Positions 1,031-57,087 of a DNA stretch of 64,000 bases are shown one piece after another; the stretch's first letter is position 1; each line of letters starts with the position of its first letter. The stretch is from Candidatus Pacearchaeota archaeon (GTDB lineage: Archaea; Nanobdellota; Nanobdellia; Pacearchaeales; GW2011-AR1). The stretch lies in NCBI GenBank assembly GCA_018303855.1, contig JAGVXI010000012.1, positions 2,403-66,402 of the forward strand. Direction: 5' to 3'. The notes beneath the pieces are model-generated. The model worked only from the letters and a program-made list of their open reading frames with translations. It ran no database searches and was not told where the DNA came from. The position numbers and the translations under genes were made by a program.

Positions 1031-1453
1031 TTAAGTTCTAACTAGTGGAATATTCTCCTGCTACTTTATCATCGAACATAAGTTCTCATAACGATCCCAT
1101 ATCCCCTGATATGGAACCGGTTTTTGTTTTTTAGTGACGTTTTCTCGTCGCCTCAACAGTGTTTTACACTTTAAGGGACAAAAATCTTTTTAGATTTTTG
1201 GATTTCAAATTGAACACAGCTGCAGGAAAAAAATCCGCAGGTGGTTTTTAATTTGAATATGATTTGTAATTTTTAGTTTTATCTGCTAATTTGTTTGGTT
1301 GTTGGACTTAATAATTTTCTAACCTTAACTATTAACTCATTCTTTGTTTATTTAATATTAACCTTTTAAATTTAATCATCTTATCTTTAATTTATTTAAT
1401 ACTGGCTTCTTAAATCTTATCATCTAAGCAATATCCATTTTTCTTAGAAAAAT

Positions 1454-1523
1454 GGACCTGCCGTGAATTGAACACGGGTCTCCTCGGTGCAAGCGAGGTA
1501 TTCTACCGTTAGACTACAGGCCC
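1454..1523 (-). tRNA. tRNA-Ala (anticodon TGC) in the 16S-23S spacer
   Basis: RC reads gggcctgtagtctaacggtagaatacctcgcTTGCAccgaggagacccgtgttcaattcacggcaggtcca: 7-bp acceptor stem with G3:U70 Ala identity pair, D-loop, anticodon loop cTTGCAc, T-arm gttcaattc; CCA not encoded. Spacer tRNA-Ala is typical of archaeal rRNA operons. Confidence 0.85.
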
Positions 1524-1887
1524 TTGTAATTATTTCGGCCTGTGAGTTTTTAATGTTTTCTATTTTGAAGGCTTTTATAGTAAAATTCTTGCTCCATTGC
1601 ACTTACTTTGTCTGAATTAACTATACCGCTAACGATAGGAGGTGCAATAAGCACAAAATATGCTGCAATTTCTAAATATTTATTCAATTCAATTTCTGAT
1701 GCCAACACGATTCCTTTTATAAAACCTACGCCAAATAAAATTGATGCAAGTGTTTTTGCCATTTTTATTATCCTTTATAATGTAAATTCACGCATGTTAA
1801 TATTTTCATCTTAAACAAAAGATGATGGTATGTAGAGCAATTAAATAATTATTTGTCTCTTTATTCTAGTTATCCAATTTAAAATTT

Positions 1888-19987: not shown

Positions 19988-20207
19988 AATATAAATAACA
20001 CAAAAAGGTTATTAAAGGTTATTGAAAGATATTTAAAGCAATGTTAATTTAGTAGAATATTAAAAAGAGGCAATGAATTAGAAATTTAAAAAGATAGTTT
20101 GAATAAAAATTAATAATAAAATTATTTAAAGTTGGTAATAATTTAAATATACTAAACGCAGATTATGAGATTAAATGAAAGTAGTAATATATAATAAAAA
20201 ATAAAAA

Positions 20208-21557
20208 ATGATAGAAATATGCACTATAGGCGGTTATGAAGAAGTAGGCAAAAATATGACTGCTGTGAAAATTGGCGAGGATGTTGTTATATTTGACTGC
20301 GGGACTTATCTGCCTGTTTTAATTGAACATAAAGAAGGGCTTGAAACTGGAGGAAAATACTCGCCCCAGCATTTAAGAAAAATAGGGGCACTTCCAAATG
20401 ACCTTGTTTTAGACAAGCTTGGCTGGACAAAAAAAGTTTGTGCAATTGTTATAGGGCACGCCCATTTAGATCATATCGGAGCTGTTCCTTATATTGCGCA
20501 AAGATATCCGCAAGCAGAAATTTTAGCTTCTCCTTTTACAATAGAAGTATTGGAGTCTATACTAAACGATGAGGGCATCAAATTAAGCAATAAAAGAAAA
20601 AAAATTCATGCTAATTCGATATATTTCATTAAAGGCAAATCAGGAAAAATAAAACTGGAATTTGTTCACACAACTCATTCCACTTTGCAGTGTGTTTTGC
20701 CTGTTTTACATACAAAAGAAGGAACTGTTTTTTATGCTCTTGATTTTAAATTTGACAATTACCCAACAATAGGCGCACCTCCAAATTATAAAAGACTAAA
20801 AGAGCTTGGGAAACAAGGAATAAAAGTTCTTGTTGTTGATTCTCTTTATTCTGGCGTTGACAGGAGAACAGCAAGTGAAAGAATTGCCAGAAATTTGATA
20901 GAAGATGCCTTATCTTTTGTAAGAGATAAAAATGCAGCACTTTTCGTAACAACTTTCTCAAGTCATATTGCTAGATTAAAAAGTATTGTTGAATTTGGAA
21001 AAAAAACCAACAGGCAGATAGTTTTCATAGGGAGAAGTTTAAACAAATATGTTGAAGCAGCAAAAAGAGTAAATTTGTGCCCTTTTTATAAAAGCATACG
21101 GCTTCTCAAATATAAAGATCAAGTCAACTCATTTTTGAAAAAAGTTGAAAAAAATCGCGGCGATTACCTTGTTGTTTGTACAGGGCATCAAGCAGAGCCT
21201 GGAAGTATTTTAGATAGAATAGTTGGAGATCAAACTCCGTTTAAGTTTATGCCAGGAGACCACTTAATTTTTTCATCAAGCATTATTCCTGCTACGCCGA
21301 ATATTAATGCCAGAGAAGCAATGGACAAAAAACTAAAAAAGAAAGGTGTAAGAATACAGACAGATATTCATGTCTCAGGGCATGCTGGCAGAGAAGATTT
21401 AAGGGATTTGCTTAGCATGCTAAAACCTCAGCATATTATTCCAGCGCACGGTTCTCTAAAACAAGAAACTCCTATGATTGAACTAGCATCTGAAATGGGC
21501 TATAAACCTCATGAAAATTCACATCTATCCCATGATGGTAAAGTGTTGAGGTTTTGA
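20208..21557 (+). CDS. rnj: archaeal ribonuclease J (metallo-beta-lactamase/beta-CASP)
   Basis: GHAHLDHIG motif II, beta-CASP motifs, ~450 aa, no KH domains. Confidence 0.85.
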   Translation: MIEICTIGGYEEVGKNMTAVKIGEDVVIFDCGTYLPVLIEHKEGLETGGKYSPQHLRKIGALPNDLVLDKLGWTKKVCAIVIGHAHLDHIGAVPYIAQRYPQAEILASPFTIEVLESILNDEGIKLSNKRKKIHANSIYFIKGKSGKIKLEFVHTTHSTLQCVLPVLHTKEGTVFYALDFKFDNYPTIGAPPNYKRLKELGKQGIKVLVVDSLYSGVDRRTASERIARNLIEDALSFVRDKNAALFVTTFSSHIARLKSIVEFGKKTNRQIVFIGRSLNKYVEAAKRVNLCPFYKSIRLLKYKDQVNSFLKKVEKNRGDYLVVCTGHQAEPGSILDRIVGDQTPFKFMPGDHLIFSSSIIPATPNINAREAMDKKLKKKGVRIQTDIHVSGHAGREDLRDLLSMLKPQHIIPAHGSLKQETPMIELASEMGYKPHENSHLSHDGKVLRF

Positions 21558-23683: not shown

Positions 23684-25738
23684 ATGCTGTTAAAAAAAAT
23701 ATATCTAAAAAACATAAGGAGCTATAAAGAGCAGGAAATATTCCTTACAAGTGGCTCTACTCTTTTATCAGGGGATATCGGCTCTGGAAAAACCTCTGTT
23801 CTTTTGGCAGTGGAATTTGCTTTATTTGGCTTGCAGCCAGGCCAAAAAGGTGCTTCATTGCTCAGAAATGGTGCAACAGAAGGTTGCGTTAAAATAGAAC
23901 TTGAGGTGAGCGGGCATGAAGTAATAATCGAACGTACACTTAAAAAAGGAAAAACCATAAACCAGGATTATTCAGCCATAATTATCAATGGAACCAAACG
24001 CGAAATTTCAGTAACAGAGCTAAAGAGTATTGTTCTTGGATTGTTAAACTACCCAAAAGAATTCTCTAAAAAACAAAATCTTCTTTATAAATTCACAGTT
24101 TACACTCCTCAGGAAGAAATGAAGCAGATAGTTCTGCAAGACCCAGAAACAAGGATTAACACTTTGCGCCATATTTTCGGCATTGATAAATACAAAAGAA
24201 TTATTGAAAATGTTACTATTGTTGCTTCCAAAATAAGAGAAGAACAAAGGAGGAACGAGGGGCTTGTTGCTAATTTAGAGCAGGATAAATCAAATCTTAT
24301 AACAAAAGAAGAAGAGCTTGAAACAAAATTTTTTAATCTTGCCTCAATAGAAAAAGAACTTTTTTTAAAAATAGAGCATAGAGAAAAAATGCAGGAAGAT
24401 GCAGAATTAATTGAAGAGAAGCTGCAGGAAAAAAGGAAGCTGGAAGGGGAGGTCGAAAAAACCAAGATAATGATTTCCAATAAAAAAGAAACCTTGTCGT
24501 CTAATAAAAAAACAATTGAAACATTAAGAAAGCAGATTGAGGAATTAACTAAGCTAAGGTTTGATGAAAGCAAATTGGCGCAAATAAAGCAGGATATGGA
24601 CAGCAAAAAAGAATTAAAAAAGAGTTTAAATGATGAAAATCTAAAAATTAGCTCGCAAATTTCTTCTTTAAATCTTAAAAATGACGAGAATAAAAATATA
24701 AAAAGTCAGATTATGCATCTTGAAATATGCCCCACATGCTTGCAGGATGTTGACCCAAACTACAAGGCAAATGTTGTTAATCAGCTGGATTCAGCAATAG
24801 TGCAGAATATTAAGCAAATTAAAGACTTAGAGCTGGAAAAAAAAGAGGTTATAGAAAAACTGCTCAGATTAGATTATGAATTATCTCTAAATGAAAAAGA
24901 ATTGCGCGATTTGGAAATATCAAAAATTAAGCTGCAGCAAGTTGATGAAAAACAAAAAGATCTTTCGGAAATAGAAAAAACCGTTAGCTTTTTGGAAAAA
25001 GATATTGTGTTATTAGAAAAACACATTAATATGCTTAAAGAGTCTGTTCTTAATCTAAGCAAGTTTAGTAATCTTTATGAAGAAAAGAAAAAAGAGCTTG
25101 AACTTGCACTGCATGAAGAAAAAATGGCTGAGATAAAAGTTGCTGAATTAAAAAGAGAAATTGAATTTTTCTCAAGGCAGATAGATGAACTAAAAATAAA
25201 AATAGAAAAAACAGAGAGCATCAAGGTGCATCTAGCTTATCTTGTAGAATTAGAAAATTGGCTTTCTAAGAACTTTGTTTCGCTTATTTCTTTTATTGAG
25301 AAAAATGTTATGACGAGGCTTAAAGTTGATTTTTCACAACTCTTTGCAAAGTGGTTTTTAATGCTTGTTTCTGATTCTTTAAATGTTGAACTGGATAATG
25401 ATTTTACTCCCATAATAATGCAGCAGGATTATGAGCTTGATTATGCCTATCTTAGCGGCGGCGAAAGAACAGCAGTAGCTTTAGCATACAGGCTTGCCCT
25501 TAATCAGGTTATTAACTCATTCCTTAGCAAAATAAATACAAAAGATTTGGTAATTTTAGACGAGCCAACAGACGGATTTAGTGAACAGCAACTCGACAAG
25601 ATGAGGGAGGTGCTTGAACAGTTAAATGTCAGCCAGCTTGTTCTTGTCAGCCACGAGCAAAAAATAGAGGGGTTTGTTGAGCATATTATTCGTTTCAAGA
25701 AAGAGCAGGGAGAGACAAAGGTTTTGGTTGTGGGGTGA
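23684..25738 (+). CDS. rad50: DNA double-strand break repair ATPase Rad50 (compact, 684 aa)
   Basis: Walker A SGDIGSGKTS, coiled coil with zinc hook CPTC, ABC signature LSGGERTAVALAYRLAL, Walker B LVILDEPTDG. Confidence 0.9.
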   Translation: MLLKKIYLKNIRSYKEQEIFLTSGSTLLSGDIGSGKTSVLLAVEFALFGLQPGQKGASLLRNGATEGCVKIELEVSGHEVIIERTLKKGKTINQDYSAIIINGTKREISVTELKSIVLGLLNYPKEFSKKQNLLYKFTVYTPQEEMKQIVLQDPETRINTLRHIFGIDKYKRIIENVTIVASKIREEQRRNEGLVANLEQDKSNLITKEEELETKFFNLASIEKELFLKIEHREKMQEDAELIEEKLQEKRKLEGEVEKTKIMISNKKETLSSNKKTIETLRKQIEELTKLRFDESKLAQIKQDMDSKKELKKSLNDENLKISSQISSLNLKNDENKNIKSQIMHLEICPTCLQDVDPNYKANVVNQLDSAIVQNIKQIKDLELEKKEVIEKLLRLDYELSLNEKELRDLEISKIKLQQVDEKQKDLSEIEKTVSFLEKDIVLLEKHINMLKESVLNLSKFSNLYEEKKKELELALHEEKMAEIKVAELKREIEFFSRQIDELKIKIEKTESIKVHLAYLVELENWLSKNFVSLISFIEKNVMTRLKVDFSQLFAKWFLMLVSDSLNVELDNDFTPIIMQQDYELDYAYLSGGERTAVALAYRLALNQVINSFLSKINTKDLVILDEPTDGFSEQQLDKMREVLEQLNVSQLVLVSHEQKIEGFVEHIIRFKKEQGETKVLVVG

Positions 25739-27346: not shown

Positions 27347-29233
27347 ATGGATATATTAAAAAGTATAACAAGCGAACTGCCTCCTGGAATGGTTACTGAA
27401 GCAAATTTTGAAGGCGCAAACATAGTTCTTTATACTAACAATGAGAAATTTCTTAAGGAAGGCGAGTTTAAAATTAAAGAAGCTGTAAACAAATTCAAAA
27501 AAAGAATTGAGCTTAGAGCTGACCAGAAAATCCTGCCAGAGCAGGAAAAAGTTGAAAAATCTATCCATGCAATCGTGCCACAAGATGCAGAAATTACAGG
27601 GATAATTTTTGATTTTCACAGAAGTATTGTGATAATTGAAGCAAAAAAACCAGGGTTGGTTATCGGCAAGCAAGGTTCTATTTTAGATGAAATAAAATCC
27701 CAAAATCTCTGGACTCCTCAAATCCAAAGAAGCCCTGCAATAAAAAGCAAAATTACAGAAAACATAAGGGAAGTTTTATATGCTAATAATAATTACAGAA
27801 GGCGTTTTCTAAATGATGTTGGCAAAAAAATTTACAGAGATTGGAATCCAGGAAAAGTTGAAGAGTGGGTGCGAATAAGCTTTTTGGGCAGTGCCCGTCA
27901 GGTTGGCAGAAGTTGCCTGCTTTTGCAGACCCCTGTTTCAAATGTTTTGCTTGATTGCGGAATAAACGTTGCAGCTCAAAACTCAGAAAAATTCCCTTAT
28001 TTTGATATTCCAGAATTTGATTTAAATAAATTAGATGCAATTATTTTAAGCCACGCTCACTTGGACCACATGGGGGTTATTCCATATCTTTTTAAAATGG
28101 GGTACAAAGGCCCGGTTTATATGACTCCTCCAACAAGGGACATAACTGCTTTAGTGAGCTTGGATTTTATTGGTGTAGCTTACAAGCAGGCTAATCAACC
28201 ACTATTTTCAAGTATAGATATTAAGGAAATGGTAAAACATTCTATTTGTTTAAATTACAACGAGGTTACAGATGTTACTCCTGATATAAGGCTTACATTT
28301 TATAATGCAGGGCATGCCTTGGGTTCTGCAATGATTCACTTAAATATTGGCAATGGGCTTCATAACCTGCTTTACTGCGCTGATTTTAAATACGGAAAAT
28401 CTCGTTTATTAGATCCTGCAATTAAAACTTTCCCAAGGTTAGAGACAGTAATTTCAGAGTCAACTTATGGGGCAAAAACAGATGTTCTGCCTCCTCGTAT
28501 TGATTCAGAAAACAAATTAATAGAAGCAGTTAATAATACAATTGAAAGAAAAGGAAAGATTTTAATTCCTGAACTTGGGCTTGGCAGAGCGCAAGAAACA
28601 ATGCTGATTATTGAGGATGCAATTAAATCAGGAAAAATGAAAAAAGTTCCTGTTTATATTGACGGAATAATGTGGGATATTAATGCTATTCATACAGCTT
28701 ATCCTGATTTTTTAAGCGCCCAAGTCCGCTCTTCAATTTTCCAAGATGATAATCCGTTTACTTCAAGCATCTTCCAGAGAGTTGGTTCTCCACAAGAAAG
28801 AAAAGCAGTTATTGAAGGAGGTCCTTGCGTGGTTCTCGCAACATCAGGAATGCTTGTTGGTGGTGCAAGTGTGGAGTATCTTAGAGAATTTGCAAGCAAC
28901 AAAAAAAACTCCTTGATTTTTGTTTGTTACCAAGGAATTGGAAGTTTAGGAAGGCAGATTCAAGAAGGGCTTAAAGAAACAAGAATGATGTCTGAGGGAA
29001 AAGAAGAACTGGTTCAAGTTAACATGGAAGTTCATACAATTACCGGTTTAACAGCGCATTCTGGGAGAAATGAACTCTTGGCTTTTTTTAATCATATACG
29101 GCCAAAGCCAAAAAGAATTATAATCAATCACGGTGAAATATCAAAAACACTTGATTTAGCAAGTGCATTATACAAGCTGAACAGAGTAGAAACTTCTGTG
29201 CCAAGAAATCTTGAAAGTGTGAGATTAAAGTAA
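27347..29233 (+). CDS. archaeal CPSF1-type beta-CASP ribonuclease (aCPSF1/FttA-like, 2 KH + MBL + beta-CASP)
   Basis: ~630 aa, N-terminal KH region, LSHAHLDHMG, beta-CASP motifs; downstream of psmB as in many archaea. Confidence 0.85.
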   Translation: MDILKSITSELPPGMVTEANFEGANIVLYTNNEKFLKEGEFKIKEAVNKFKKRIELRADQKILPEQEKVEKSIHAIVPQDAEITGIIFDFHRSIVIIEAKKPGLVIGKQGSILDEIKSQNLWTPQIQRSPAIKSKITENIREVLYANNNYRRRFLNDVGKKIYRDWNPGKVEEWVRISFLGSARQVGRSCLLLQTPVSNVLLDCGINVAAQNSEKFPYFDIPEFDLNKLDAIILSHAHLDHMGVIPYLFKMGYKGPVYMTPPTRDITALVSLDFIGVAYKQANQPLFSSIDIKEMVKHSICLNYNEVTDVTPDIRLTFYNAGHALGSAMIHLNIGNGLHNLLYCADFKYGKSRLLDPAIKTFPRLETVISESTYGAKTDVLPPRIDSENKLIEAVNNTIERKGKILIPELGLGRAQETMLIIEDAIKSGKMKKVPVYIDGIMWDINAIHTAYPDFLSAQVRSSIFQDDNPFTSSIFQRVGSPQERKAVIEGGPCVVLATSGMLVGGASVEYLREFASNKKNSLIFVCYQGIGSLGRQIQEGLKETRMMSEGKEELVQVNMEVHTITGLTAHSGRNELLAFFNHIRPKPKRIIINHGEISKTLDLASALYKLNRVETSVPRNLESVRLK

Positions 29234-33281: not shown

Positions 33282-34574
33282 TTATCCAACAATCCTCAAC
33301 TCTCTTATACTCATCTCATTAATTCTTCTTGCGTTTTTCTTTTTCCAGTTGTTTATGGAATTGTTAATTGAAAAATCAACCTTATTCTTAGCATAAAGTC
33401 TGCTGTTCTTTATTAAGTAATTTTTATGTGCTTTTTTAAAAGCCCTAGCATTATTCTTATCAGTTGTATGAGGCCCCTGCGTAATTATCTCTTTTTTAGC
33501 CTTTGCAGTAAAATAAACTTGCGCTGATTTTTTGTTGTAATAATCAAATCCCTTGCTTTTTACATCAAAATATATGCTTATTTCCTGCACCAAGAAATTA
33601 TAAAATTTAAATAGTTTACTTCCGGCTATGTCTCCTTCTTGTTTGTCTGTCGTTATTTCAAGCTGGATAAATTCTCGCTTATTTTTTTTAGCATTTTCTT
33701 TAATTTCATTAATGTTTGCACCTTTTAATTCAAATGCTTCCACTTTTGGATTATTAATAAATTTTTTACAAGTCTCTTTAAACTTTTCAAAAGTTTGTTC
33801 AGACAAGGCAGCCAAAGCATTTCTTTGTTTAAAAGTCGGATCAACTAAGATTATCGGCGACAGCAGTTTTGAGCTGTTAATATCCATCAGAATATTGGAT
33901 TTATTTTTATAATGCTTTTGCAAGTCTATTACAATTTTATCTTTCCCATTAGACTTAGCAACAGCCTTGATAAAGTTTATAAAACTCTTATAATGCAGAA
34001 TTAATAGCTCTAAAGAATACCCAGAAAAACCCCGAATATAGCTTTCAGCACCATAGCATTTATTTGCATAGCAAAACGCTTTAACCAGCATAACCTCATC
34101 AACAAGTTTTTTTGTCTTCAACTTATTTTTAACATACTTCACGTGGCTGTAAGACAAATCGGTTATGTTCTGAGCTTGATTGGGCTTTGATATTTTCATA
34201 ACAGGGATTAATTCAATGCAGAAATTATTAGCAGGAGTTACTTTAAAATAATCCCTTGAGCCGTGGATTAAGGTGTATTTTTCTCTGCTTGTTTTTAGTA
34301 TTTTTTCAGTTAAAGCTGAGATAGTATCTTGATTGTACTTTTTATCAAATCGTATAAAGATATCCACATCATAGATTTCTCTTTTTATGATTGTTCTTTT
34401 AGCAAAGCTTCCGCCAACAAAAACCTCTGCCTTAATCTTTTGTTTTTTTATCCCACGTTTTAATTTTTCCAGAAATTTGTTTAATATGGGGGTTATTTCT
34501 TTAAAATCATTTGAGGGGTTAACTTTAATTAAAACTTCTTTGAATATAGAGTTAACAGCGCTTTTGCTTTTCAT
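33282..34574 (-). CDS. cca: CCA-adding tRNA nucleotidyltransferase (archaeal class I)
   Basis: VFVGGSFAKRT...YDVDIFI (GS...DxD motif), ~430 aa. Confidence 0.75.
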   Translation of the reverse strand: MKSKSAVNSIFKEVLIKVNPSNDFKEITPILNKFLEKLKRGIKKQKIKAEVFVGGSFAKRTIIKREIYDVDIFIRFDKKYNQDTISALTEKILKTSREKYTLIHGSRDYFKVTPANNFCIELIPVMKISKPNQAQNITDLSYSHVKYVKNKLKTKKLVDEVMLVKAFCYANKCYGAESYIRGFSGYSLELLILHYKSFINFIKAVAKSNGKDKIVIDLQKHYKNKSNILMDINSSKLLSPIILVDPTFKQRNALAALSEQTFEKFKETCKKFINNPKVEAFELKGANINEIKENAKKNKREFIQLEITTDKQEGDIAGSKLFKFYNFLVQEISIYFDVKSKGFDYYNKKSAQVYFTAKAKKEIITQGPHTTDKNNARAFKKAHKNYLIKNSRLYAKNKVDFSINNSINNWKKKNARRINEMSIRELRIVG

Positions 34575-41771: not shown

Positions 41772-43190
41772 TTATCCCTTAACAACAACCAAGGGTTTTA
41801 ATCTAGCAACTTTTTTGGATATTCCAAGCTCGTCGACAACCTCAACTACTTCATCAATGTCTTTGTAAGCTTCAGGCGCTTCTTCTGCAAGTGATTTCCA
41901 GCTTCCAGCTTTAACCTCTATACCTATTTTACTTAGACTCTTTTTAATTTCTTCTCCTCTAAAACTCCTTATTGAATCTGCTCTGCTTTTAACCCTTCCT
42001 GCTCCATGAACAGTGCTTGAAAATGTTAATTCTTCTGCTTTTTCTGTTCCGACTAAAATATACGACGCTGTGCCCATGCTTCCTGGAATTAAAACAGGCT
42101 GTCCTACTTGCCTGTACACGTCAGGAATTTCTTTTCTTCCTGCACCAAAACTTCTTGTGGCGCCTTTTCTGTGCACACAAACAATTTGTTTTTTGCCATT
42201 TACAACATGCTCTTCAAATTTCGCAATATTGTGGCAAATATCATATAAAACATCAATTTTTATTTTAGGAAAAAGCTTTTGCATTTCTTCTCTTACCCAA
42301 TGAGTTATAACCTGCTTGTTTGCAAAAGCAAAATTCACAGCACAGCACATTGCTTCATAATAATCCTTACCTAGTTTGCTTTCTATAGGTGCATTTATTA
42401 ATTCCCTATCAGGCAAATCTTTAAAGCCATACTCCTGTTCCATTAGTTTAATGTAATCTGAAGCAACTTGATGCCCTAATCCACGACTTCCGCAGTGAAT
42501 CATTATCACAACCTGCTCTTTTTCCAGTCCAAAAGCTTTTGCTATCTCTTTGTCAAAAATGTCGTCGACAAATTGCACTTCAAGGAAATGATTGCCAGCC
42601 CCTAAAGTTCCAACTTGTCCAATTCCTCTTTTTTTTGCTCTTTCACTTACTTTATCAGGATTTGCATTTTTCATACATCCTTCTTCTTCTGTATGCAGAT
42701 AATCTTCTTTAAACCCAAATCCTTTTTTAACAATATACTGCGCTCCACTTTTTAGCAATTCATCAAGCTCTTTATAAGAAATTTGAAATGTGCTTCCTCT
42801 ACCAACCCCCGAAGGTATTTTTCTATAAAGCGCTTCAACAATTTCTTTTTGTTTTTTTAAAATATCCTGTTTTTTCAAATTAGTTTTTAAAATTCGCACC
42901 GAGCAGTTAATATCGTACCCGACACCGCCAGGGCTTATTATTCCTTTGTCCATATCAAATGCTGCAACCCCACCAATTGGGAATCCGTAGCCTTGATGTG
43001 CATCTGATAATGCAATTGATGCTTTTAAAATGCCAGGCAGCATTGCAACATTTTTCACTTGCTCCAAAGTCTTATCTTTTTTAATCGCATTTAACAGTTT
43101 TTCAGAAGCATAGACTATACCAGGCACATTCATGTTGCCTGTTTTCGGTAGTTCATATGTATTTTTTGATATTTTTTTGAGTTCAGGCAT
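41772..43190 (-). CDS. rtcB: RNA 3'-phosphate ligase RtcB (tRNA-splicing ligase)
   Basis: DAHQGYGFPIGGV, GYDINCSVR, GAGNHFLEVQ, HNIA motifs. Confidence 0.9.
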   Translation of the reverse strand: MPELKKISKNTYELPKTGNMNVPGIVYASEKLLNAIKKDKTLEQVKNVAMLPGILKASIALSDAHQGYGFPIGGVAAFDMDKGIISPGGVGYDINCSVRILKTNLKKQDILKKQKEIVEALYRKIPSGVGRGSTFQISYKELDELLKSGAQYIVKKGFGFKEDYLHTEEEGCMKNANPDKVSERAKKRGIGQVGTLGAGNHFLEVQFVDDIFDKEIAKAFGLEKEQVVIMIHCGSRGLGHQVASDYIKLMEQEYGFKDLPDRELINAPIESKLGKDYYEAMCCAVNFAFANKQVITHWVREEMQKLFPKIKIDVLYDICHNIAKFEEHVVNGKKQIVCVHRKGATRSFGAGRKEIPDVYRQVGQPVLIPGSMGTASYILVGTEKAEELTFSSTVHGAGRVKSRADSIRSFRGEEIKKSLSKIGIEVKAGSWKSLAEEAPEAYKDIDEVVEVVDELGISKKVARLKPLVVVKG

Positions 43191-48142: not shown

Positions 48143-49495
48143 TTATTTTGATGGCTGTTTTAAATGTAAAAATGTTAGGAAGACAATATTAATAGCTGTA
48201 ACACCCAAAATCATTAGCAAGGTTATCATTTGGTTGCTTAAAGCAATTCCCAAACCGCTAATTTTAATCATCATCAGCAAAAGCATAAAAATCATCGGAG
48301 CAGCAATTACAACGCTGATATAAATGTCCATAAAAGTTTCAGCAGTTCTGGTATATTTTTCCCTCTCAAGCCTGTAATCAAATAAAAGGCTTTGAGCTCT
48401 TTTATCAAAAAAATCCGGCAAATTTCCACCAGAACTTATTGTTGTTGCTATCCCATTAAAAAGTTCAGCCAGTTTTTTGCTTGGGCTGTTCGTTGCATTG
48501 TTTCTTAGAGCACTTACAAGATCATAGCCATAGACATTAATTTCATTTATTAGTTTTGTAAATTCCCTTGTTAAATACGGGTATTCTTCTGTTGAAATAA
48601 TAATGCTGAATATCTTGCTTGGCTCTATCATTGAGCCGGATATTGCTGCCATATGTATTGTTGCAAAAGGCAATTCCTGATCAATTCTGCTTTCATTGGA
48701 CTTTTTTTCAAGCGAAGGATAAACATACATGGATAAGAATGTTAATACTGGTACAGCAAGAATAATCCAAAAAACTTTCAGAAATCTTTCAAATAATGAG
48801 CCAGTTACTTGGGTAATAATTGGAAGTTCTGCAACAATATTAAAGAATAAAAAAAAGATAAACAACAAAAAGCCCGCAAAAAGAGAGATAATTGTGGTCA
48901 GCAGCGTGATAGCAATATAGCTTGTAGGGAGTATGGAAATATTTGCTTTTACCAAATTCCGTTTTAATGCTCTGAACATTTTTTTTTGCATAAGATTTAA
49001 TGAAATTCCTGAAAATAAATTGTTAGCAAATTTGATGTAACTGCTTGGTTTTTTTATTTTCTTTTTTGTTACTTTTTTGCTCTTTTTTCCCAGTCTTTTT
49101 AAAGTAAATCTTTCAAATTCTGTGGTCTTTTTGAAATAATTTCTTGCAGTTAGAAGTGGGTTGATGTTATGCTGGGCCATTGTTCTATGGTTAGCCTGCA
49201 CTCTTTCATATTTTTTTCCTAAATCATTTTCTCCTTTTTCAATGTTTTTTGTCGCTTTATCAAATCCAAAGGTGTCTTTTTGTTCAGAGGATAGTGGTTT
49301 AACCAGCATTATTCTATGCAAAATTTGCAGAATATTCTCATTGGTTTGTTTTAGCTTTTCAAGAAGTAATCTTCCCATTTTTTCGTCTGTCTTTTTTTGA
49401 GAAAGAATGCCTATCTGTTCAACTAAAATTTTTTCCTGGGCAATATGCTGTTGTAGAACTTCAAATGTTTTTAATTCATCTATTCCAGACTTCAT
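48143..49495 (-). CDS. T2SS-F domain membrane platform protein (TadB/FlaJ-like), larger
   Basis: 450 aa, multiple TM, T2SSF-like loop (NGIATTISSGGNLPDFF...). Confidence 0.65.
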   Translation of the reverse strand: MKSGIDELKTFEVLQQHIAQEKILVEQIGILSQKKTDEKMGRLLLEKLKQTNENILQILHRIMLVKPLSSEQKDTFGFDKATKNIEKGENDLGKKYERVQANHRTMAQHNINPLLTARNYFKKTTEFERFTLKRLGKKSKKVTKKKIKKPSSYIKFANNLFSGISLNLMQKKMFRALKRNLVKANISILPTSYIAITLLTTIISLFAGFLLFIFFLFFNIVAELPIITQVTGSLFERFLKVFWIILAVPVLTFLSMYVYPSLEKKSNESRIDQELPFATIHMAAISGSMIEPSKIFSIIISTEEYPYLTREFTKLINEINVYGYDLVSALRNNATNSPSKKLAELFNGIATTISSGGNLPDFFDKRAQSLLFDYRLEREKYTRTAETFMDIYISVVIAAPMIFMLLLMMIKISGLGIALSNQMITLLMILGVTAINIVFLTFLHLKQPSK

Positions 49496-49656
49496 TTTAT
49501 AGCATCAGACATCCTTCTATTAATCTGAAGCATGAATTTTTTTATTTTATTGAACTCTTCGCTATCTTTTTTATAATAAGCTTCTCTAAGTTTTGATTCA
49601 GCCTCATTTAAAGATTCAACTAACTGTTTTAGAAAGACAATATCATCCTCTTTCAT
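49492..49656 (-). CDS. small helical protein (54 aa) translationally coupled to the platform gene
   Basis: ORF below track threshold; its TGA overlaps the ATG of the 48143-49495 gene (ATGA). Confidence 0.3.
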   Translation of the reverse strand: MKEDDIVFLKQLVESLNEAESKLREAYYKKDSEEFNKIKKFMLQINRRMSDAIK

Positions 49657-49814
49657 AGCTAAAAAAGGTTATTTGCATTATTAAATTTAATGGTTTTTGG
49701 GATTAAATTTAATTAACTATCCGCAATAAATTCATTTAATTTGGTTTATAGGTGAATTGTGCTACATAAAATTATGCATTTTGTATATTCCGTAAGCATG
49801 ATAATAATTTGATA

Positions 49815-50023
49815 TGTCAAGAATTGTTTTTTATGCAAACTCCCTACTTTAGTTCGCGAGACTTCAAGATTGTTATTAGGATTGGCAATCTTGACAGCAC
49901 TCAAGAATCTTCGATTCTTGATGGAATAAAAACAATTCTTGAGCACTTCAAGATTCTTTTATAGAATCTTGATAGTCGTCAAAAACAATGTTTTTGAGAT
50001 GCTCAAGAACCAGACACGCCATA
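49815..50023. repeat. MITE-like palindromic repeat, copy B (~210 bp, expanded, lacks right TIR)
   Basis: Shares termini and core with copy A; extra internal palindromes built on TCAAGAAT/ATTCTTGA (e.g. ctcaagaatcttcgattcttgatgg). Confidence 0.5.
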
Positions 50024-50120
50024 AGATAGTTAATAATTGATGCTAGAGATTAAGCTCAATGCAGTTGATAATGCGACATTCAAATTAAAATTGTACTCTA
50101 AAACTAGTTTTTCTATTTAA

Positions 50121-51677
50121 CTATTGCACCCCAAATTTCTGCAAAACTTCTTTAGGCTTTTTATAATATTCATTTATAATCTCCTGCACTTTTTTAAATT
50201 CAAATATTTTTTGCTGATATAACTTGTAAATTATCTGAACTCTTCTTTTAAATTCTAAATCGAGCTCATTCATTGTCAATCCATATCGCTTGGCAATTTT
50301 TTCAAATATCTTGCTGTTTTTTTTGAAATAAAACTGGTCATCTTTTGGGTTCCAAACATAAGGCGTGTTGGTTAATGCAATTCCATCAGGAGTGACATTA
50401 ATAATTTCAACTATTGATTTGAGTTTTCTTGTCTCCTGCTTTTTAACAATTGCATGCGTCATAATACAAACACAATCAAGAACATTCAGCAAAGTTGGAG
50501 ATAAATTAATCGGGGGGGTTTCTAATCTTTTAATAACTGTATCAACTGATTCAGCATGAATAGTGCTTATTGAACTATGCCCAGAAGCCATACCCTGAAA
50601 CAGCACATACGCTTCTTTTCCCCTAACTTCCCCAACAATAACATAATCAGGAGTTTGTCTAAAAGAGCTTTTTAATAATGCAAAAAGGTCAATTTCTCCA
50701 ATATTTCCTAAACCAGTTGCACTCCTGACAACACTTGGAAGCCAGTTTTCCCTTGGCAAATTTAGTTCTCTAGTATCTTCAATTGAAACAACTCTTGCTT
50801 CAGGAGGGATGAAAAATGCAATAGCGTTTAGCAAGGTTGTTTTTCCAGATGCAGTGCCTCCTGTTATAAGGACATTCATTTTATACTGAATTAACAGCCA
50901 TAAATAAGCAAGCATTTCAGGGCTTAATGTATTGAACCCTATTAACCTTGTAGGAGTCCAGGGCGTTTTTGTAAACTTTCTCATCGTAAATGTTGGTCCC
51001 CTGGTTGTTACATCTGTTGTATAAGTAGCATTAACTCTGCTTCCATCAGGCAGGCTTCCATCTAAAATCGGATTTGCATAAGAAATATATTTTCCGCATC
51101 TTTGCGCGAGTTTTTCAACAAAACTTGCGAGGTACTCAGTATCATTAAAAATAACATTTGTCTTGAGGTTCCTGTAAAGTCTATGAACAATGTAAAGGGG
51201 CGTATTTGCCCCATTGCATTCAATGTCTTCAATAAAATAATCTCTTAATAATGGGTCAATTTCATTAAATCCCATAAAATCCCTGCATAAATAATAATAG
51301 ATTTTTCTGTAACTTCCATACGGGATATCAAATCCAAGCTCTATTGCTATAATCTTAAACATTCTATCAATATATTCCAATAAGGCTTCCCTGCTTTTTT
51401 CAACAATGACATTGAAATTAACCATCTCTCTCATAGCAGTTTTTATTTGCTCCAGCACAGCACTTTCATCAGGGGTTAATATTGGTTCTTCAATTTCATA
51501 AAGAACTTCAGAAATCTGAGGATTCCAGTAAATGTGGGCAAATGCAAAGGGGTAAATGAGGTTATATCTTATGTTTATTTTTGTCTTATCCTTGAACTTT
51601 CTCATTGGTTTAATTTCCGGATTAAAATCAATTTCCACCCTCGGATAATTTTGCATGTTTATTTTTTCCTGTTCCAT
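50121..51677 (-). CDS. type IV pilus/archaellum-family assembly ATPase (FlaI/TadA/VirB11-like secretion NTPase)
   Basis: Walker A VLITGGTASGKTT, E-rich box, His box; ~520 aa. Confidence 0.85.
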   Translation of the reverse strand: MEQEKINMQNYPRVEIDFNPEIKPMRKFKDKTKINIRYNLIYPFAFAHIYWNPQISEVLYEIEEPILTPDESAVLEQIKTAMREMVNFNVIVEKSREALLEYIDRMFKIIAIELGFDIPYGSYRKIYYYLCRDFMGFNEIDPLLRDYFIEDIECNGANTPLYIVHRLYRNLKTNVIFNDTEYLASFVEKLAQRCGKYISYANPILDGSLPDGSRVNATYTTDVTTRGPTFTMRKFTKTPWTPTRLIGFNTLSPEMLAYLWLLIQYKMNVLITGGTASGKTTLLNAIAFFIPPEARVVSIEDTRELNLPRENWLPSVVRSATGLGNIGEIDLFALLKSSFRQTPDYVIVGEVRGKEAYVLFQGMASGHSSISTIHAESVDTVIKRLETPPINLSPTLLNVLDCVCIMTHAIVKKQETRKLKSIVEIINVTPDGIALTNTPYVWNPKDDQFYFKKNSKIFEKIAKRYGLTMNELDLEFKRRVQIIYKLYQQKIFEFKKVQEIINEYYKKPKEVLQKFGVQ

Positions 51678-52069
51678 TTTGCCTCTTTTTTGTTTTTATG
51701 CATTATTTAACTTAGCAAATATATAAGCTTTAATATGCTAATCTTAATTCACTTAACATTTAATTGATAGCAGCTGATATATGCGCAACATAGTTAATAT
51801 TGACTTCACAGCCTTTTTACATTAACCAACTCCCACTTCTTTCCATTAGCAACTTTTTTTAATAAATTACCGCCTATTTTTTACTTAATAATCTCTTTTT
51901 TAACAACTTTTTTACTTTAATGATATACCTTAAGTATCCTTATTAACTGATGCTTTTTATCTAATTTGTGTTATTATCTTGTCAGCTTTATCTTACCTGT
52001 TTAACATAACTATTATCATTTAACCCAACAATCGCTCTCTAATATAATAAACTCTGCAATTTTTTAAAT

Positions 52070-52663
52070 TTAACTGACTACATTAATATTGATTTTAATT
52101 GGAGTATCAGCAGGGGCTGATGGTTCTACACCATTATTTTCTAATTTTACTTTGTAGGGAATAGGAGCTTTTGTTATTGTTTTTGCTTCTACTTCTGAAT
52201 TGTCATACTGCAGGTTATATTTGTTTGTATAATCAAGAGTTAAGGTTACATCATAAACTTTGCTTCCTTTTTTTTCTGTAAGAATGTTAATATTCCCATC
52301 CTTAATTGTTCTTCCTGGCTCACTATACATGCTCTTACTTTCACTTAATGTAAAAATTATTGAATCAGAATTACTGTCAAATTTCAAATTTCCTTTTTTT
52401 ATTCCTATCTCAACTATCCTTGTATTTCCTTCTCCCCCTCTGGTAATCTCTGATACAACTGAATCAATATACCTCATAATCTCTATTGTTTGTTCAATTA
52501 CTGCCTGGTCCTGTACTTCTTGTATCTTTGGTTTAACAAATGCCAACGTTGTTCCGATTATAACCAGTCCAATTAGGGTGTAGATAACAGTTTCAACCCA
52601 AATCTGTGCAAGCTTATTCATAGCTTTAAAACCTCTTTTATATTTAATGCAAGAAGAACTCAT
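52070..52663 (-). CDS. pilin-like membrane-anchored protein
   Basis: KRGFKAMNKLAQIWVETVIYTLIGLVIIG N-terminal helix then beta-rich domain. Confidence 0.45.
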   Translation of the reverse strand: MSSSCIKYKRGFKAMNKLAQIWVETVIYTLIGLVIIGTTLAFVKPKIQEVQDQAVIEQTIEIMRYIDSVVSEITRGGEGNTRIVEIGIKKGNLKFDSNSDSIIFTLSESKSMYSEPGRTIKDGNINILTEKKGSKVYDVTLTLDYTNKYNLQYDNSEVEAKTITKAPIPYKVKLENNGVEPSAPADTPIKININVVS

Positions 52664-52696
52664 TTAAATAATTAATTGTTTAGGTTAAATCAAGGC

Positions 52697-53341
52697 TTAA
52701 GAAACAATTATTCCTGCAGCGCATTTTCCTATCTCAGAAGCTATGTCAACAACCCCGCAGTCTTGTCCATCTATGAACGCAGAAAGTTTTACTGATTCTG
52801 GCACATCAGTGAAGCTGAAAAATGGCAGGCTAGTGTCGACAATATATGTTTTTCCAGCATTTTTTCCAGGAAGTTCAAGAGGATTCCCAAAGTTAGTTCC
52901 TGCCCCTGAATTTTTAATAAAAATGGCAGATTGTCCATCAATTAATTCAAATCCTTTTGAATTTCCTTTTGACATAATAGAAACTCCAAATTTCTCAACT
53001 TCTATATTTTCAACATTTATTGAAACCTGAGTCATATCATTATATGTTCCATCACTCTGGTTCTGCCAGCAGGTATAAACTTTGTTTAACTTTATTTTAT
53101 CAAAAATATCTGAACAAGTTCCTGCCTGTTCTAAATTTCCTTTAATCATCTGGTTTATTACTGTCCAAATTATCCCTATTGCTACAACAACCAAAGTGAT
53201 TAGAATTAAAACGCTAATAACTCCTGATAAACCTTTTTTATCACAAAGTCCTTGTGTGTTTTTGTTTGGACTTTGTGGGACAGAAAACAAAAGACAATTG
53301 CTATGCAATTTGTTTTCTGTATAAACTGTTTTTTTGCCCAT
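52697..53341 (-). CDS. archaeal type IV pilin (class III signal, long leader)
   Basis: ...DKKG|LSGVISVLILITLVVVAIGIIW; start taken at Met15 (track ORF extends to 53383 and overlaps the upstream pilin gene). Confidence 0.55.
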   Translation of the reverse strand: MGKKTVYTENKLHSNCLLFSVPQSPNKNTQGLCDKKGLSGVISVLILITLVVVAIGIIWTVINQMIKGNLEQAGTCSDIFDKIKLNKVYTCWQNQSDGTYNDMTQVSINVENIEVEKFGVSIMSKGNSKGFELIDGQSAIFIKNSGAGTNFGNPLELPGKNAGKTYIVDTSLPFFSFTDVPESVKLSAFIDGQDCGVVDIASEIGKCAAGIIVS

Positions 53342-53342
53342 T

Positions 53343-53819
53343 TTACAACTCTTTTTCAACACCTGTTCGAGCATCGCAAACATAAGCAGTTTTTCCGTCT
53401 TCAGAACTTCCTAATAAAACAGGAATTATTAAAATCCTGTTAGCGTCTGTAAGTACCAGAGATATATCATCAGATGTCCAGCTTCCGCCTTGCCTTAATC
53501 CTCCTGCAGGCCAACTACTATCCAAATCTCTTATATCCTGCTCAGAATAATCCCCTCCCTCGTAAATTCTTATTTTTAATCCATAAAGAGGGGTATTTCC
53601 GTTAACTATACTCAACTTTCCGTTTGTATAAGTTACAGTAAAGCTTATGTCATCTTCGCAAACAAGTGCTATATTCTTTTCAAATTTTGTAACTGGTGTT
53701 TTAATTGTCATTCTAAACCATAAGAAAATGATCAATGCAATTGCCACAACTATTGCAATCAACAAAACAGTTGCAATAACAGGCGAAAGTCCCCTTTTCT
53801 TATTTATTCTTTTAAGCAT
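53343..53819 (-). CDS. archaeal type IV pilin (class III signal peptide)
   Basis: MLKRINKKRG|LSPVIATVLLIAIVVAIALIIF, the archaeal pilin N-terminal consensus (G-LSPVIATVLLIAI). Confidence 0.7.
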   Translation of the reverse strand: MLKRINKKRGLSPVIATVLLIAIVVAIALIIFLWFRMTIKTPVTKFEKNIALVCEDDISFTVTYTNGKLSIVNGNTPLYGLKIRIYEGGDYSEQDIRDLDSSWPAGGLRQGGSWTSDDISLVLTDANRILIIPVLLGSSEDGKTAYVCDARTGVEKEL

Positions 53820-53966
53820 TTTTATCTTTTTGTTAATATTTAAATCTGATTTATATTTATTAATCTTAATCTGTTTATGATGGTTAATCTGGTATTAGGC
53901 TTTTTACAATTAAAACTTTTTTGATTTTATTCTATTATATCAAGTTTACTTAGTTTTAAAATCTTT

Positions 53967-54503
53967 TTATATTGTAGCGCAGGTTATTTCTTCTTTTATT
54001 TTTCCTTCATCACAAGAAACAATCCTCTCAACTCTTTTTTCATCTATCTGGACTTTTGCTGGAATAATCTCAATTGAATGGATTGTTTGTGGGGCACCAG
54101 TTTCATCTACAACAAGAGCCATATTTATCTCTTTTTCTGCAGATTCTCTACCTGGTTTTAACAAACCTCCTCCAAATGAAACATATCCTGGATTTTGAGG
54201 TTGTACTATATTAACTAAATCAAAAGTTGCTGTTTCTTGATTAGGCTCAATTGTTGCTCTAATAAAATAACCATCAATATCGAATCTCCCGTTATTTTTT
54301 AGTTTGAAGATTAATTGATTCCCACTGCATTCAATCTGCGTCAGCATTAAAGAAGTTCCTTCAGGGCATTTTTGCATTCCTTCTCGTGGAATATTGACTT
54401 TTAAAAATTGATAGACTATTAAACTCATAACAACAGCAATGCTGATTAGTAGTATATAACTAATCATAATGCTTATCCCTTTTTTATTTTTCCTATTTAT
54501 CAT
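53967..54503 (-). CDS. archaeal type IV pilin-like protein
   Basis: MINRKNKKG|ISIMISYILLISIAVVMSLIVY. Confidence 0.6.
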   Translation of the reverse strand: MINRKNKKGISIMISYILLISIAVVMSLIVYQFLKVNIPREGMQKCPEGTSLMLTQIECSGNQLIFKLKNNGRFDIDGYFIRATIEPNQETATFDLVNIVQPQNPGYVSFGGGLLKPGRESAEKEINMALVVDETGAPQTIHSIEIIPAKVQIDEKRVERIVSCDEGKIKEEITCATI

Positions 54504-54652
54504 TGTTGATTTTTTGTTAGCTTTTATAAGGTATTTTTTATTTTCAAACCTTTAACTATAATTAATTTAATTTATATTACCAGCACCTGCTTTAATTGTT
54601 AACACTTGCTGGCTATTTAATCTTTCTTGATTTGGTTATGTTTTTTAATTTC

Positions 54653-55183
54653 TTAGCTTTTAGCAATGTATGTTTCTTCTCCAATATTCTGCAATATTAC
54701 AAAATAAAAGTTTTCACCAGGTTTTAAATTGAATTGATAGTCCACTTCTTTACCAGTCTGTTCATTTTCTATTTTTATAATAATATCAGTTTCTCCCCCA
54801 ACAGAAATTGTCTTTTTTTTATATGCATCTCCTTCTATTTTGATTTTTGGACTTCCTTCTCCAAGTGTTATGCTTATGCCCCCTAAAATAATTTCTTCAA
54901 ATGTTGCAATAGTTATTGTATCGGTATTTCCATAAGCAAAATACAAGTTTCTCCCCTCTTCTTTAGAATATTTATGGTAAAGCGTCGTGAAGTCTTCAAT
55001 TTTATTGTCATCACTGAATGTTCCATATTCCAAAACTTTTCCGCCTTCAAAACCCAACTCATCTTTCAAATTATAAATTTTAACATCAGATTTTCTTACA
55101 TAATTTTGCACAATAGCAAACCCAAGAATAATCGCAATAATCACAATTGCTGCTATAAGGTAAAACTGCCCCTTTTTTTGCAT
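54653..55183 (-). CDS. archaeal type IV pilin-like protein
   Basis: MQKKG|QFYLIAAIVIIAIILGFAIV. Confidence 0.6.
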   Translation of the reverse strand: MQKKGQFYLIAAIVIIAIILGFAIVQNYVRKSDVKIYNLKDELGFEGGKVLEYGTFSDDNKIEDFTTLYHKYSKEEGRNLYFAYGNTDTITIATFEEIILGGISITLGEGSPKIKIEGDAYKKKTISVGGETDIIIKIENEQTGKEVDYQFNLKPGENFYFVILQNIGEETYIAKS

Positions 55184-55279
55184 GATATACTTAACAAATC
55201 ACTTTTTATAAATCTTATCAATAACCAACTCTGTGCTAGCGCCGACGATAAAATAAATCATCAATGTTAAAAAATCTCA

Positions 55280-55560
55280 AAACTTCGGGACTTTTACTTG
55301 AAAAGTAGACCCGAAGGCTAGCCTCAAGATTATTAAAAAGCTTCCCTCATTCTTTCTCAGCTCTGCGACCCACCAAGCATCTTGACAAATGTTTAGGGCT
55401 GCTCCGATCAAAGTCTGACCCGTTTCGCATCTGCAAGATCGAAGTGGACAGAACCTCAACGTCCGAACAAGGACTTTTTAATCCACTTGTCACATACCTT
55501 CTTGCAGTCTGCCGTAAAGCCCGTTTGCAAACAGCGGAGGGCTAACCCGCTAACCTGGTC
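55280..55560 (-). ncRNA. candidate structured ncRNA, unidentified (SRP RNA and IS-associated RNA are untested possibilities)
   Basis: ~280-nt island at ~50% GC in ~30% GC DNA with no credible ORF; long-range complementarity on the minus strand (CUGCAAGA/UCUUGCAG, AAGUGGA/UCCACUU, GUCC/GGAC hairpin); 3' end is a GC stem-loop (55283-55316) followed by a U-tract. Confidence 0.4.
55283..55316 (-). terminator. intrinsic terminator-like hairpin plus U-tract at the candidate ncRNA 3' end
   Basis: cttcggg-acttttacttgaaaagtag-acccgaag stem-loop followed on the minus strand by UUUUGAGAUUUUUU. Confidence 0.3.
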
Positions 55561-55620
55561 TACATATTTCATAGAGGAAAATAGGTTTTTAAGATTATTG
55601 TTTTGGGGGAGTGTTAGGAA

Positions 55621-56949: not shown

Positions 56950-57087
56950 ATGGAAAGGAAGACAACAAGCATTAAGGTTAGTCCGCAGTTGTGGGAAGAT
57001 GTTAAGATATTCTGCATAAGGCAGAAGATAGATATTTCTGATTGGTTGGAGAAAATCATCAGGGAAAATTTGAAGAAATCTAAATAA
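56950..57087 (+). CDS. ribbon-helix-helix (CopG/Arc-like) small DNA-binding protein, 45 aa
   Basis: MERKTTSIKVSPQLWEDVKIFCIRQKIDISDWLEKIIRENL: beta strand then two helices, RHH pattern; below the ORF-track size cutoff. Confidence 0.5.
   Translation: MERKTTSIKVSPQLWEDVKIFCIRQKIDISDWLEKIIRENLKKSK

Follow-up and report, generated by a model that had tools for sequence, protein, structure and literature searches.

A signal recognition particle RNA gene without helix 6 beside a transposase in a DPANN archaeon

Introduction

What does a GC-rich island without an evident protein-coding gene, lying next to a transposase, encode in a small archaeal genome? The question is raised by positions 55280-55560 of a 64,000-nt stretch of contig JAGVXI010000012.1 (Candidatus Pacearchaeota archaeon, assembly GCA_018303855.1); the whole stretch is referred to here as the window. 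A sequence-only reading of the island had proposed a structured non-coding RNA on the minus strand, with signal recognition particle (SRP) RNA as a guess and an RNA associated with the co-oriented transposase as the alternative. Here we show that the GC-rich island is an SRP (7S) RNA gene, encoded on the minus strand, and that its RNA lacks helix 6. Taken as a whole, our reading of the locus is a native, single-copy SRP RNA gene without helix 6, transcribed from its own promoter, with probable co-loss of the protein SRP19 and with a transposase that is an unrelated and recent neighbour. We give this reading a probability of about 90%. The window is archaeal, as it carries the small subunit rRNA gene, tRNA-Ala(UGC) in the 16S-23S spacer and the start of the large subunit rRNA gene (1-3290, minus strand), and the host would be a Woesearchaeota/Pacearchaeota-type DPANN archaeon of aquifer groundwater. 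Exact protein matches trace the window to groundwater metagenomes from an aquifer (PRJNA268031, ANAN16 scaffolds, JGI 3300002105).

According to a 2010 review of 81 archaeal SRP RNAs, every archaeal group has both SRP19 and helix 6 (with a GNAR loop, or AAAG in Thermoplasmatales), two features that 'coexist' (PMC2905702). Helix 6 is the binding site of SRP19, and an adenosine clamp links the tetraloops of helices 6 and 8 (PMC2905702). The same review argued for a subordinate, perhaps 'defunct', SRP19 in archaea, with reference to a Haloferax SRP19 deletion that is viable (PMC2905702).

The GC-rich island is an SRP RNA gene

The island stands out by its composition, with a GC content of 48.3% at 55303-55565 and 45-50% over 55300-55560, compared with 32.3% for the window outside the rRNA genes; the figure of ~50% GC given from the sequence alone was therefore accurate. 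Under permissive filters, a 1-kb Infernal search against Rfam matched the island to Archaea_SRP (RF01857) over the full model, positions 1-317, with a score of 73.5 bits and an E-value of 2.6e-16 (1.7e-14 when the whole window was searched). This is the sole SRP match within the 64-kb window. It lies on the minus strand with its 5' end at 55565, in line with the strand and the 5' end near 55560 that had been predicted. The island as first delimited, 55280-55560, is real, but the limits of the gene shift to 55303-55565.

The score of 73.5 bits lies under the RF01857 gathering score of 96.5 bits, and a default Rfam scan of the window at gathering thresholds consequently returned no match at 55303-55565. 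The Infernal/Rfam scan suggested for this island thus succeeded under permissive filters only, and default thresholds would wrongly have given the answer 'no Rfam hit'. Compared with canonical archaeal SRP RNA, it is the AT-rich stems of the window RNA that push its score below the threshold. Related DPANN copies (L039, L008, L117, L100 and L104) pass the gathering score with 110-138 bits. RNase P RNA was also considered at this locus and ruled out, with no match.

Covariation supports a complete Alu domain, helix 5 and helix 8

To collect relatives, we searched species-representative genomes with a helix 8 core pattern that allowed any base at the apical positions (GGTCAGA-N8-GGAGCAGCC). At least 119 loci matched, many of them by chance or as ordinary bacterial 4.5S RNAs. 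Among the matches listed were approximately 30 DPANN metagenome-assembled genomes (MAGs) labelled Woesearchaeota, Pacearchaeota, Nanoarchaeota or Nanoarchaeia, together with an Altarchaeum bin. Fifteen DPANN relatives, each of ~260 nt, align end to end with the window RNA at 70-85% identity, and these 16 sequences make up alignment A1. Alignment A2, built with MAFFT, contains 25 DPANN copies and a canonical control from Methanomethylicus (L026, 312 nt). Nine further DPANN SRP RNAs were detected with Rfam (261-275 nt), five of which exceed the gathering threshold; over all 25 DPANN copies the length ranges from 256 to 275 nt.

SRP RNAs of the DPANN type were also seen in MAGs carrying other labels: 'Dojkabacteria' (L064), 'bacterium CSMAG_44' (L097), 'Methanosarcinales' (L008 and L014) and 'Altarchaeum' (L117). 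The helix 8 core of L097 is exactly that of the window, and the L064 copy is full length and 76% identical. Such RNAs under bacterial or non-DPANN labels are probably the product of mis-binned contigs or mislabelled bins.

The minus strand of the island folds into a single long rod closed by a helix between its 5' and 3' ends, with a minimum free energy of -93.6 kcal/mol (z = -3.26). The long-range base-pairing expected on this strand is therefore present, with the qualification that the plus strand also beats its shuffles (z = -3.0). Because both strands fold better than shuffled sequence, it is the Rfam match and the promoter that decide the strand. RNAalifold predicted 81 pairs from the 16 sequences of A1, 39 of them with compensatory double changes. 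We tested an SRP-style structure of 86 pairs on the same alignment, comprising helices 1, 2, 3, 4, 5 and 8 and the loop-loop pseudoknot between helices 3 and 4. Standard pairs filled 95.6% of pair cells, a percentage inflated by the partial derivation of the structure from these same sequences, compared with 38-53% when the 3' partners were slid by 1-3 columns. Stronger evidence comes from comparing compensatory changes with those of the slid controls: both sides had changed in 44 of the 86 pairs, against 14-18 after sliding. None of 500 column shuffles reached any of the observed pairing measures, and the window copy satisfies every one of the 86 consensus pairs. Folding and covariation across 15 relatives, which had been put forward as a check on the island, thus support the SRP fold.

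In the Alu (small) domain, helix 1 is formed from the 5' and 3' termini (GUAGACC/GGUCUAC); two of its seven pairs covary, with a compensatory change from UA to CG in 5 of the 16 sequences. Pairing fills 95% of cells in helix 2, 99% in helix 3 (AGCGGG/CUCCGCU, 4/6 pairs covarying) and 96% in helix 4 (UGC/GCA). The tertiary pairs between the loops of helices 3 and 4 (AGCCC/GGGCU) are formed in 100% of cells and covary at two of five positions. The linker between helices 3 and 4 reads UGUUU in the window and departs from the UGUNR U-turn motif; the linkers of close relatives are UAUUU, UGAUU or CAUUU. L039, L008 and L117 retain UGUAAC, against which these linkers show a 2-nt deletion. Deviations from UGUNR have been noted in several archaeal groups (PMC2905702). 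Helix 5 is long, and its many covarying pairs support it strongly. In the region expected for the 5e hinge there is an invariant internal loop, GACGUUGA/CUGAG, whose placement relative to the 11-nt 5e consensus is approximate. Taken together, the RNA has a complete Alu domain that a long helix 5 connects to helix 8.

The open reading frames (ORFs) overlapping the island are of 33-60 aa only, and the three short frames on the RNA strand contain 1-5 stop codons in nearly all of the 15 relatives, as the earlier claim of no credible ORF would lead one to expect. ORFs of 38-60 aa overlapping the region are what a decayed protein-coding remnant, GC-rich by chance, would have in its favour. Its frames are however broken by stops in nearly all relatives, whilst the nucleotides are 70-85% conserved with compensatory changes in stems, and we regard this explanation as extremely improbable.

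Helix 6 is absent from the DPANN copies

In the cmscan alignment the 40 model positions of helix 6 are reduced to 1 nt in the window RNA and to none in the best-scoring DPANN copy (L039, 138.5 bits). The same gap is found in 25 of the 25 DPANN copies examined, and the nine further copies detected with Rfam all fold without a helix 6 branch. By contrast, the control L026 aligns through all of helix 6, including a GGAG loop, and alone fills the block of ~40 columns that results (columns 147-187 of A2). The strands flanking the helix 6 site pair continuously (columns 125-144 with 181-203 of A1), with 12 of 17 pairs covarying. Helix 6 is absent from the window RNA and from all 25 DPANN copies examined.

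A gene with a missing arm might be a decaying or redundant SRP RNA pseudogene from which helix 6 has been deleted, with a canonical functional copy elsewhere in the genome. The sub-threshold Rfam score would fit, as would the adjacent insertion sequence (IS) and the restriction of the view to 64 kb of the genome. Against this, the architecture without helix 6 is conserved and covarying, with an intact promoter, in 25 DPANN genomes, and the window copy retains its complete set of consensus pairs. SRP RNA is also normally single-copy, which we count against a second, canonical gene. A pseudogene is thus very unlikely.

In its overall plan, the window RNA follows the canonical archaeal SRP RNA (RF01857; Methanocaldococcus jannaschii, Archaeoglobus fulgidus). 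It shares helix 1, helices 2-4 with their loop-loop contact, a long helix 5, the SRP54-binding loops of helix 8 (…CAG…AGCAGCC), a TATA promoter of its own and alignment to the full-length model. It differs in lacking the ~40-nt helix 6, and so has neither the SRP19 site nor the adenosine clamp between helices 6 and 8. It further differs in its helix 8 loop (UGAU rather than GRRA), in its linker (UGUUU rather than UGUNR) and in its length (~263 nt compared with ~300-320 nt).

The helix 8 core is conserved but its apical loop is altered

The SRP54-binding core of helix 8 can also be written as GGUCAGA...GGAGCAGCC in the window RNA. All 16 aligned sequences share the segment GGGUCAGA...GGAGCAGCCC unchanged, and the flanking stems are 100% paired. 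A single core position varies between C and U, and the pair is kept (C-G to U-G); the window has U. Spacing within the core equals that of the canonical GGCCAGG-CCC-GGAA-GGG-AGCAGCC in the Rfam alignment. Judging by this conservation of the motif, the symmetric and asymmetric loops of helix 8 should bind the M domain of SRP54.

The apex of helix 8 in the window is UGAU (URRU), not GRRA, and is closed by a U·C on a 2-bp stem of C-G and U-G. The cap is thus C-U-U/UGAU/C-G-G in the window and C-C-U/UGAU/C-G-G in most DPANN relatives. Among the matches listed, the apex segment CCUUGAUCGG / UUGAUC occurs in about 20 DPANN MAGs; the window has CUUUGAUCGG. The loop is UGAC in L104, and a minority of copies (L039, L048, L008 and L100) keep GGAA. 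The helix 8 loop was given as GRRA in the 2010 archaeal survey (PMC2905702), whilst URRC and URRU are recognised bacterial alternatives to GNRA on helix 8 (PMC4091067). The window RNA resembles those bacterial SRP RNAs in having a non-GNRA loop of the form U-R-R-Y; such loops were described for bacteria, whereas the archaeal survey gives GRRA only.

Two subgroups of DPANN SRP RNA can be told apart in A2. The first has a UGUAAC linker, a mostly GGAA loop and scores above the gathering threshold (L039, L008, L100, L117 and L104). The second, which includes the window, has the 2-nt linker deletion, a UGAU loop and scores mostly below the threshold. Since both subgroups are without helix 6, the loss of helix 6 appears to have preceded the change of the helix 8 loop.

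An unusual apex (CCUUGAUCGG, CCUUGACCGG or CCUUGACGGG; CCUUGAC(C/G)GG) was also present, among the matches listed, in MAGs of Phycisphaerae/Planctomycetota (L016, L020, L038 and L082). The apex shared between DPANN archaea and Planctomycetota may reflect convergent use of URRY loops in unrelated lineages.

The gene has its own archaeal promoter

A TATA-like box (YTTAAAWA or TTTATAAA) was found in all 16 genes of A1, with its centre ~27 nt upstream of helix 1 and an A-rich stretch before it. This distance fits standard archaeal promoter geometry. By that geometry, transcription would start at ~55565 on the minus strand from the gene's own promoter, composed of a B recognition element (BRE) and TATA box. 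The guess that the island encodes SRP RNA (GGUCAGAC...GGAGCAGCC) is thus borne out by a full-length Archaea_SRP match, by covariation of the SRP fold and by an archaeal promoter at the right distance.

At the other end of the RNA, the first oligo-T run (Table 1) is likely to represent the termination or 3'-end region, the exact 3' end being a predicted position. Relatives also carry T-rich sequence within ~10 nt of helix 1, at a variable position. A 3' hairpin followed by U-tracts had been described from the sequence, and a hairpin does occur at 55283-55316, with T-runs at 55279-55282 and 55269-55274 after it. It is specific to the window and draws on the 3' strand of the RNA's own terminal helix (CUUCGGGUCUAC...), which it pairs with downstream sequence; no counterpart was found in the two close relatives checked (L079 and L115). 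The hairpin could serve as a terminator or insulator, or could be an alternative fold specific to a precursor.

The promoter also bears on a bacterial origin of the gene. The large SRP RNA of the Bacillus subtilis small cytoplasmic RNA type (RF01854) has the same helices as the window RNA (Alu domain, helices 5 and 8, no helix 6) and a similar size, Bacillus-type large bacterial SRP RNA being ~270 nt long. Its S-domain particle presumably contains SRP54/Ffh alone, as we propose for the window RNA. Acquisition of such an RNA by horizontal transfer, in place of helix 6 loss within archaea, would account for the set of helices, for a URRU/URRC loop otherwise described in bacteria and for the CCUUGAUCGG loop in Planctomycetota MAGs. 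However, the best family of the SRP clan in cmscan is Archaea_SRP for the window RNA and for 9 of 9 further DPANN copies, the promoter is an archaeal TATA promoter and the host is an archaeon. The subgroup with GGAA and UGUAAC (L039, L008 and L100) is moreover typically archaeal in all but helix 6, suggesting stepwise loss within the lineage. HBsu, the Alu-domain partner in Bacillus, has no identified equivalent here. Horizontal transfer is therefore an unlikely source of this gene, and we retain loss of helix 6 from an archaeal SRP RNA as the explanation.

The adjacent transposase is an unrelated neighbour

The transposase upstream of the RNA gene is present in one copy in the window, as judged by self-BLAST. 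The end of the mobile element is marked by three contigs from other samples (L005, L006 and L127): from 64000/59850, on the methylase side, to 55607 they match the window at 100% identity, and beyond that base they run on into unrelated DNA encoding arginyl-tRNA synthetase (ArgRS). The distance from position 55607 is 13 nt to the TATA box downstream of it and 41 nt to the 5' end of the RNA; both the core promoter and the gene are intact beside the element. A transposon junction ~45 bp upstream of the 5' end had been predicted, and its distance holds. No matching terminal inverted repeats, direct repeats or second element end, at up to 3 mismatches, were found in the window, and neither was the target duplication that had been reported.

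At 55607 the block containing the methylase and transposase genes has two alternative neighbours: the SRP RNA locus (window, L001-L004), or a block with ArgRS, adenylate kinase and an 808-aa gene. Past the alternative junction the sequence returns to a point ~20 kb off within this contig family, and an Rfam scan of the junction (L005) found no SRP-like RNA. In L127 (JGI 3300002105 contig C687J26635_10000187), positions 20059-20645 repeat positions 1-587, a period of ~20,058 bp. This arrangement suggests a ~20-kb segment, with ribbon-helix-helix (RHH)/PIN, SNase, Big_13 and N6-methylase genes, that may either be flanked by two direct IS copies or have a circular or tandem form.

No homologues of the transposase, the methylase or the small RHH ORF were found near the RNA in 28 related DPANN loci. 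On the downstream side, homologues of the pilin-like 176-aa and 178-aa proteins are syntenic and co-oriented with the SRP RNA in at least 12 DPANN relatives. Since the pilin-like genes are syntenic whilst the transposase is absent at the 28 related loci, we take the RNA to be native to this locus and the transposon, unrelated to it, to have arrived recently.

These observations also dispose of the proposal that the RNA belongs to, or regulates, the DDE transposase as an IS guide or antisense RNA. Adjacency and common orientation, with only 41 nt between the element end and the RNA start, made the association worth considering. The element nevertheless ends outside both the RNA and its promoter, L005 and L006 carry the same transposase end on unrelated DNA without an SRP-like RNA, and a transposase homologue accompanies the RNA at 0 of 28 RNA-bearing loci. 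The RNA is also a full-length SRP match. The claimed association with the co-oriented transposase thus fails, and we give it almost no credence.

Table 1. Features of the SRP RNA locus and its surroundings in the window
Feature	Position	Strand	Remarks
SRP (7S) RNA gene	55303..55565	-	263 nt; Rfam Archaea_SRP RF01857 match and covariation with 15 relatives
Alu (small) domain, 5' part	55503..55565	-	helix 1 5' strand GUAGACC, helices 2-4, loop-loop pairs
Would-be helix 6 branch site (~40-nt helix)	55431..55432	-	nothing inserted
Helix 8 core, SRP54-binding motif GGGUCAGA-CUU-UGAU-CGG-AGCAGCCC	55396..55421	-	apical loop UGAU at 55407-55410
TATA box (CTTAAAAA) of the RNA's own promoter	55586..55593	-	A-rich BRE-like stretch before it, 55594-55603
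First oligo-T run	55301..55304	-	directly after terminal helix
Hairpin CUUCGGG.UACUUUU...AAAAGU.CCCGAAG	55283..55316	-	overlaps RNA 3' end; -13.2 kcal/mol, z = -2.4
Mobile element end (...TAATTCCTAACACTCCC, then junction)	55607		contig divergence point
DDE transposase, 409 aa	55621..56850	-	Pfam DDE_Tnp_IS66 2.3e-10, DDE_Tnp_IS240 1.5e-8; N-terminal zinc-ribbon/SWIM-like motifs
Pilin-like 176-aa protein gene	54653..55183	-	N-terminal hydrophobic pilin-like signal; no Pfam match; native downstream neighbour of the RNA

SRP19 was probably lost together with helix 6

The absence of helix 6 was considered alongside published surveys of marker genes. In Woesearchaeota, PF01922.12 was dropped from the set of completeness markers, being absent across all 152 genomes (PMC8421398), and PF01922 is a consistently absent marker in Parvarchaeales and Jingweiarchaeales (PMC10134863). 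Neither paper comments on what this marker is. PF01922 is the SRP19 family, which we confirmed with the M. jannaschii protein (sequence checked against PDB 1LNG chain A). Neither an SRP54 nor an SRP19 gene was seen in the 64 kb of genome available. Given that helix 6 is absent here and that no surveyed Woesearchaeota genome is reported to contain SRP19, the protein and helix 6 were most likely lost together, giving a two-component particle of bacterial style made of SRP54 and RNA.

Co-loss would leave a particle of SRP54 and 7S RNA. The GNAR loop of helix 6 normally clamps the GRRA loop of helix 8, and this clamp would have been lost with helix 6. With the clamp gone, drift of the helix 8 loop would have become possible in one sublineage. 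In its broadest form, the proposal is that a whole DPANN radiation (Woesearchaeota/Pacearchaeota-type Nanoarchaeota, possibly Parvarchaeales) uses SRP54 with a 7S RNA that keeps the Alu domain and lacks helix 6, SRP19 having been co-lost, and that GRRA then changed to URRU in one sublineage. We lean towards this broad form as somewhat better than an even prospect. The Haloferax volcanii SRP19 deletion (cited in PMC2905702) is a precedent in that an archaeal SRP works without SRP19. That was however a laboratory loss in which helix 6 was kept, whereas here both the protein (by literature survey) and the RNA arm seem to have been lost naturally and lineage-wide.

Several points weigh against our reading of the locus. 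The window RNA does not reach the Rfam gathering score, and the pairing percentage of its proposed structure is inflated as described above. Relatives had to carry GGTCAGA...GGAGCAGCC to be collected, and the sample of DPANN diversity is consequently partial; the taxon labels of several MAGs are also unreliable. Both ends of the RNA are predicted from sequence features, and the same holds for the binding of SRP54 and for the role of the UGAU loop. The published absence of SRP19 depends on a single Pfam hidden Markov model, and a highly divergent SRP19 is possible. A tblastn search with M. jannaschii SRP19 gave nothing meaningful, but it covered the window and the DPANN loci rather than whole genomes and its power was negligible.

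The textbook archaeal SRP consists of 7S RNA, SRP19 and SRP54, and the arm that binds SRP19 is missing in 25 of the 25 DPANN copies examined here. SRP RNA is itself a universal housekeeping RNA whose presence is expected, which limits the surprise of finding it. If the co-loss is correct, the particle would be the first archaeal SRP to lack SRP19 and helix 6 naturally. The 2010 conjecture of a dispensable archaeal SRP19 would also be confirmed, and PF01922 would be explained as a 'missing marker' in estimates of DPANN completeness. A 'missing marker gene' would then become a coherent co-loss of RNA arm and protein, a natural minimisation of the particle. The change from GGAA to UGAU after loss of the clamp would offer a natural experiment on what constrains this loop, contact with helix 6 or docking of FtsY as in bacteria. 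In practical terms, default pipelines would report genomes of the window's subgroup as lacking SRP RNA, and a lineage-specific model built from the present alignment would correct this. Our literature searches combining SRP19 or SRP RNA with DPANN found no paper that describes a DPANN SRP RNA or links it to loss of SRP19, the wider literature remaining uncertain in this respect.

Neighbouring genes and the rest of the window

Downstream of the RNA, on the same strand, 48143-55183 holds genes for small proteins with pilin-like signals (176, 178, 158 and 228 aa), followed by genes for a T2SSE-type ATPase and T2SSF. The arrangement of RNA and pilin cluster recurs in relatives including L031, L048, L052, L079, L114, L115 and L121. 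In the window 120 nt separate the RNA from the pilin-like gene, compared with ~50-90 nt in most relatives. From this layout it is conceivable that read-through transcription joins the SRP RNA to genes for SRP substrates.

On the other side of the locus, the transposase is followed on the plus strand by a 45-aa ORF that looks ribbon-helix-helix-like by eye (56950-57087) and by a gene for a 759-aa N6-adenine DNA methylase (PF02384; 57179-59458); these two separate the transposase from the remainder of the block. Elsewhere the window contains several RNA-processing genes: an RtcB ligase (41772-43190), a CCA-adding enzyme with a SMODS-like N-terminus (33282-34574), an RNase J-like beta-CASP protein (20208-21557) and FttA/aCPSF1 (27347-29233). 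A Rad50/SMC-like ATPase is encoded at 23684-25738. The 16S rRNA is 1403 nt long, compared with a model of 1478 positions, and several of its helices are shortened, as expected for a reduced DPANN genome.

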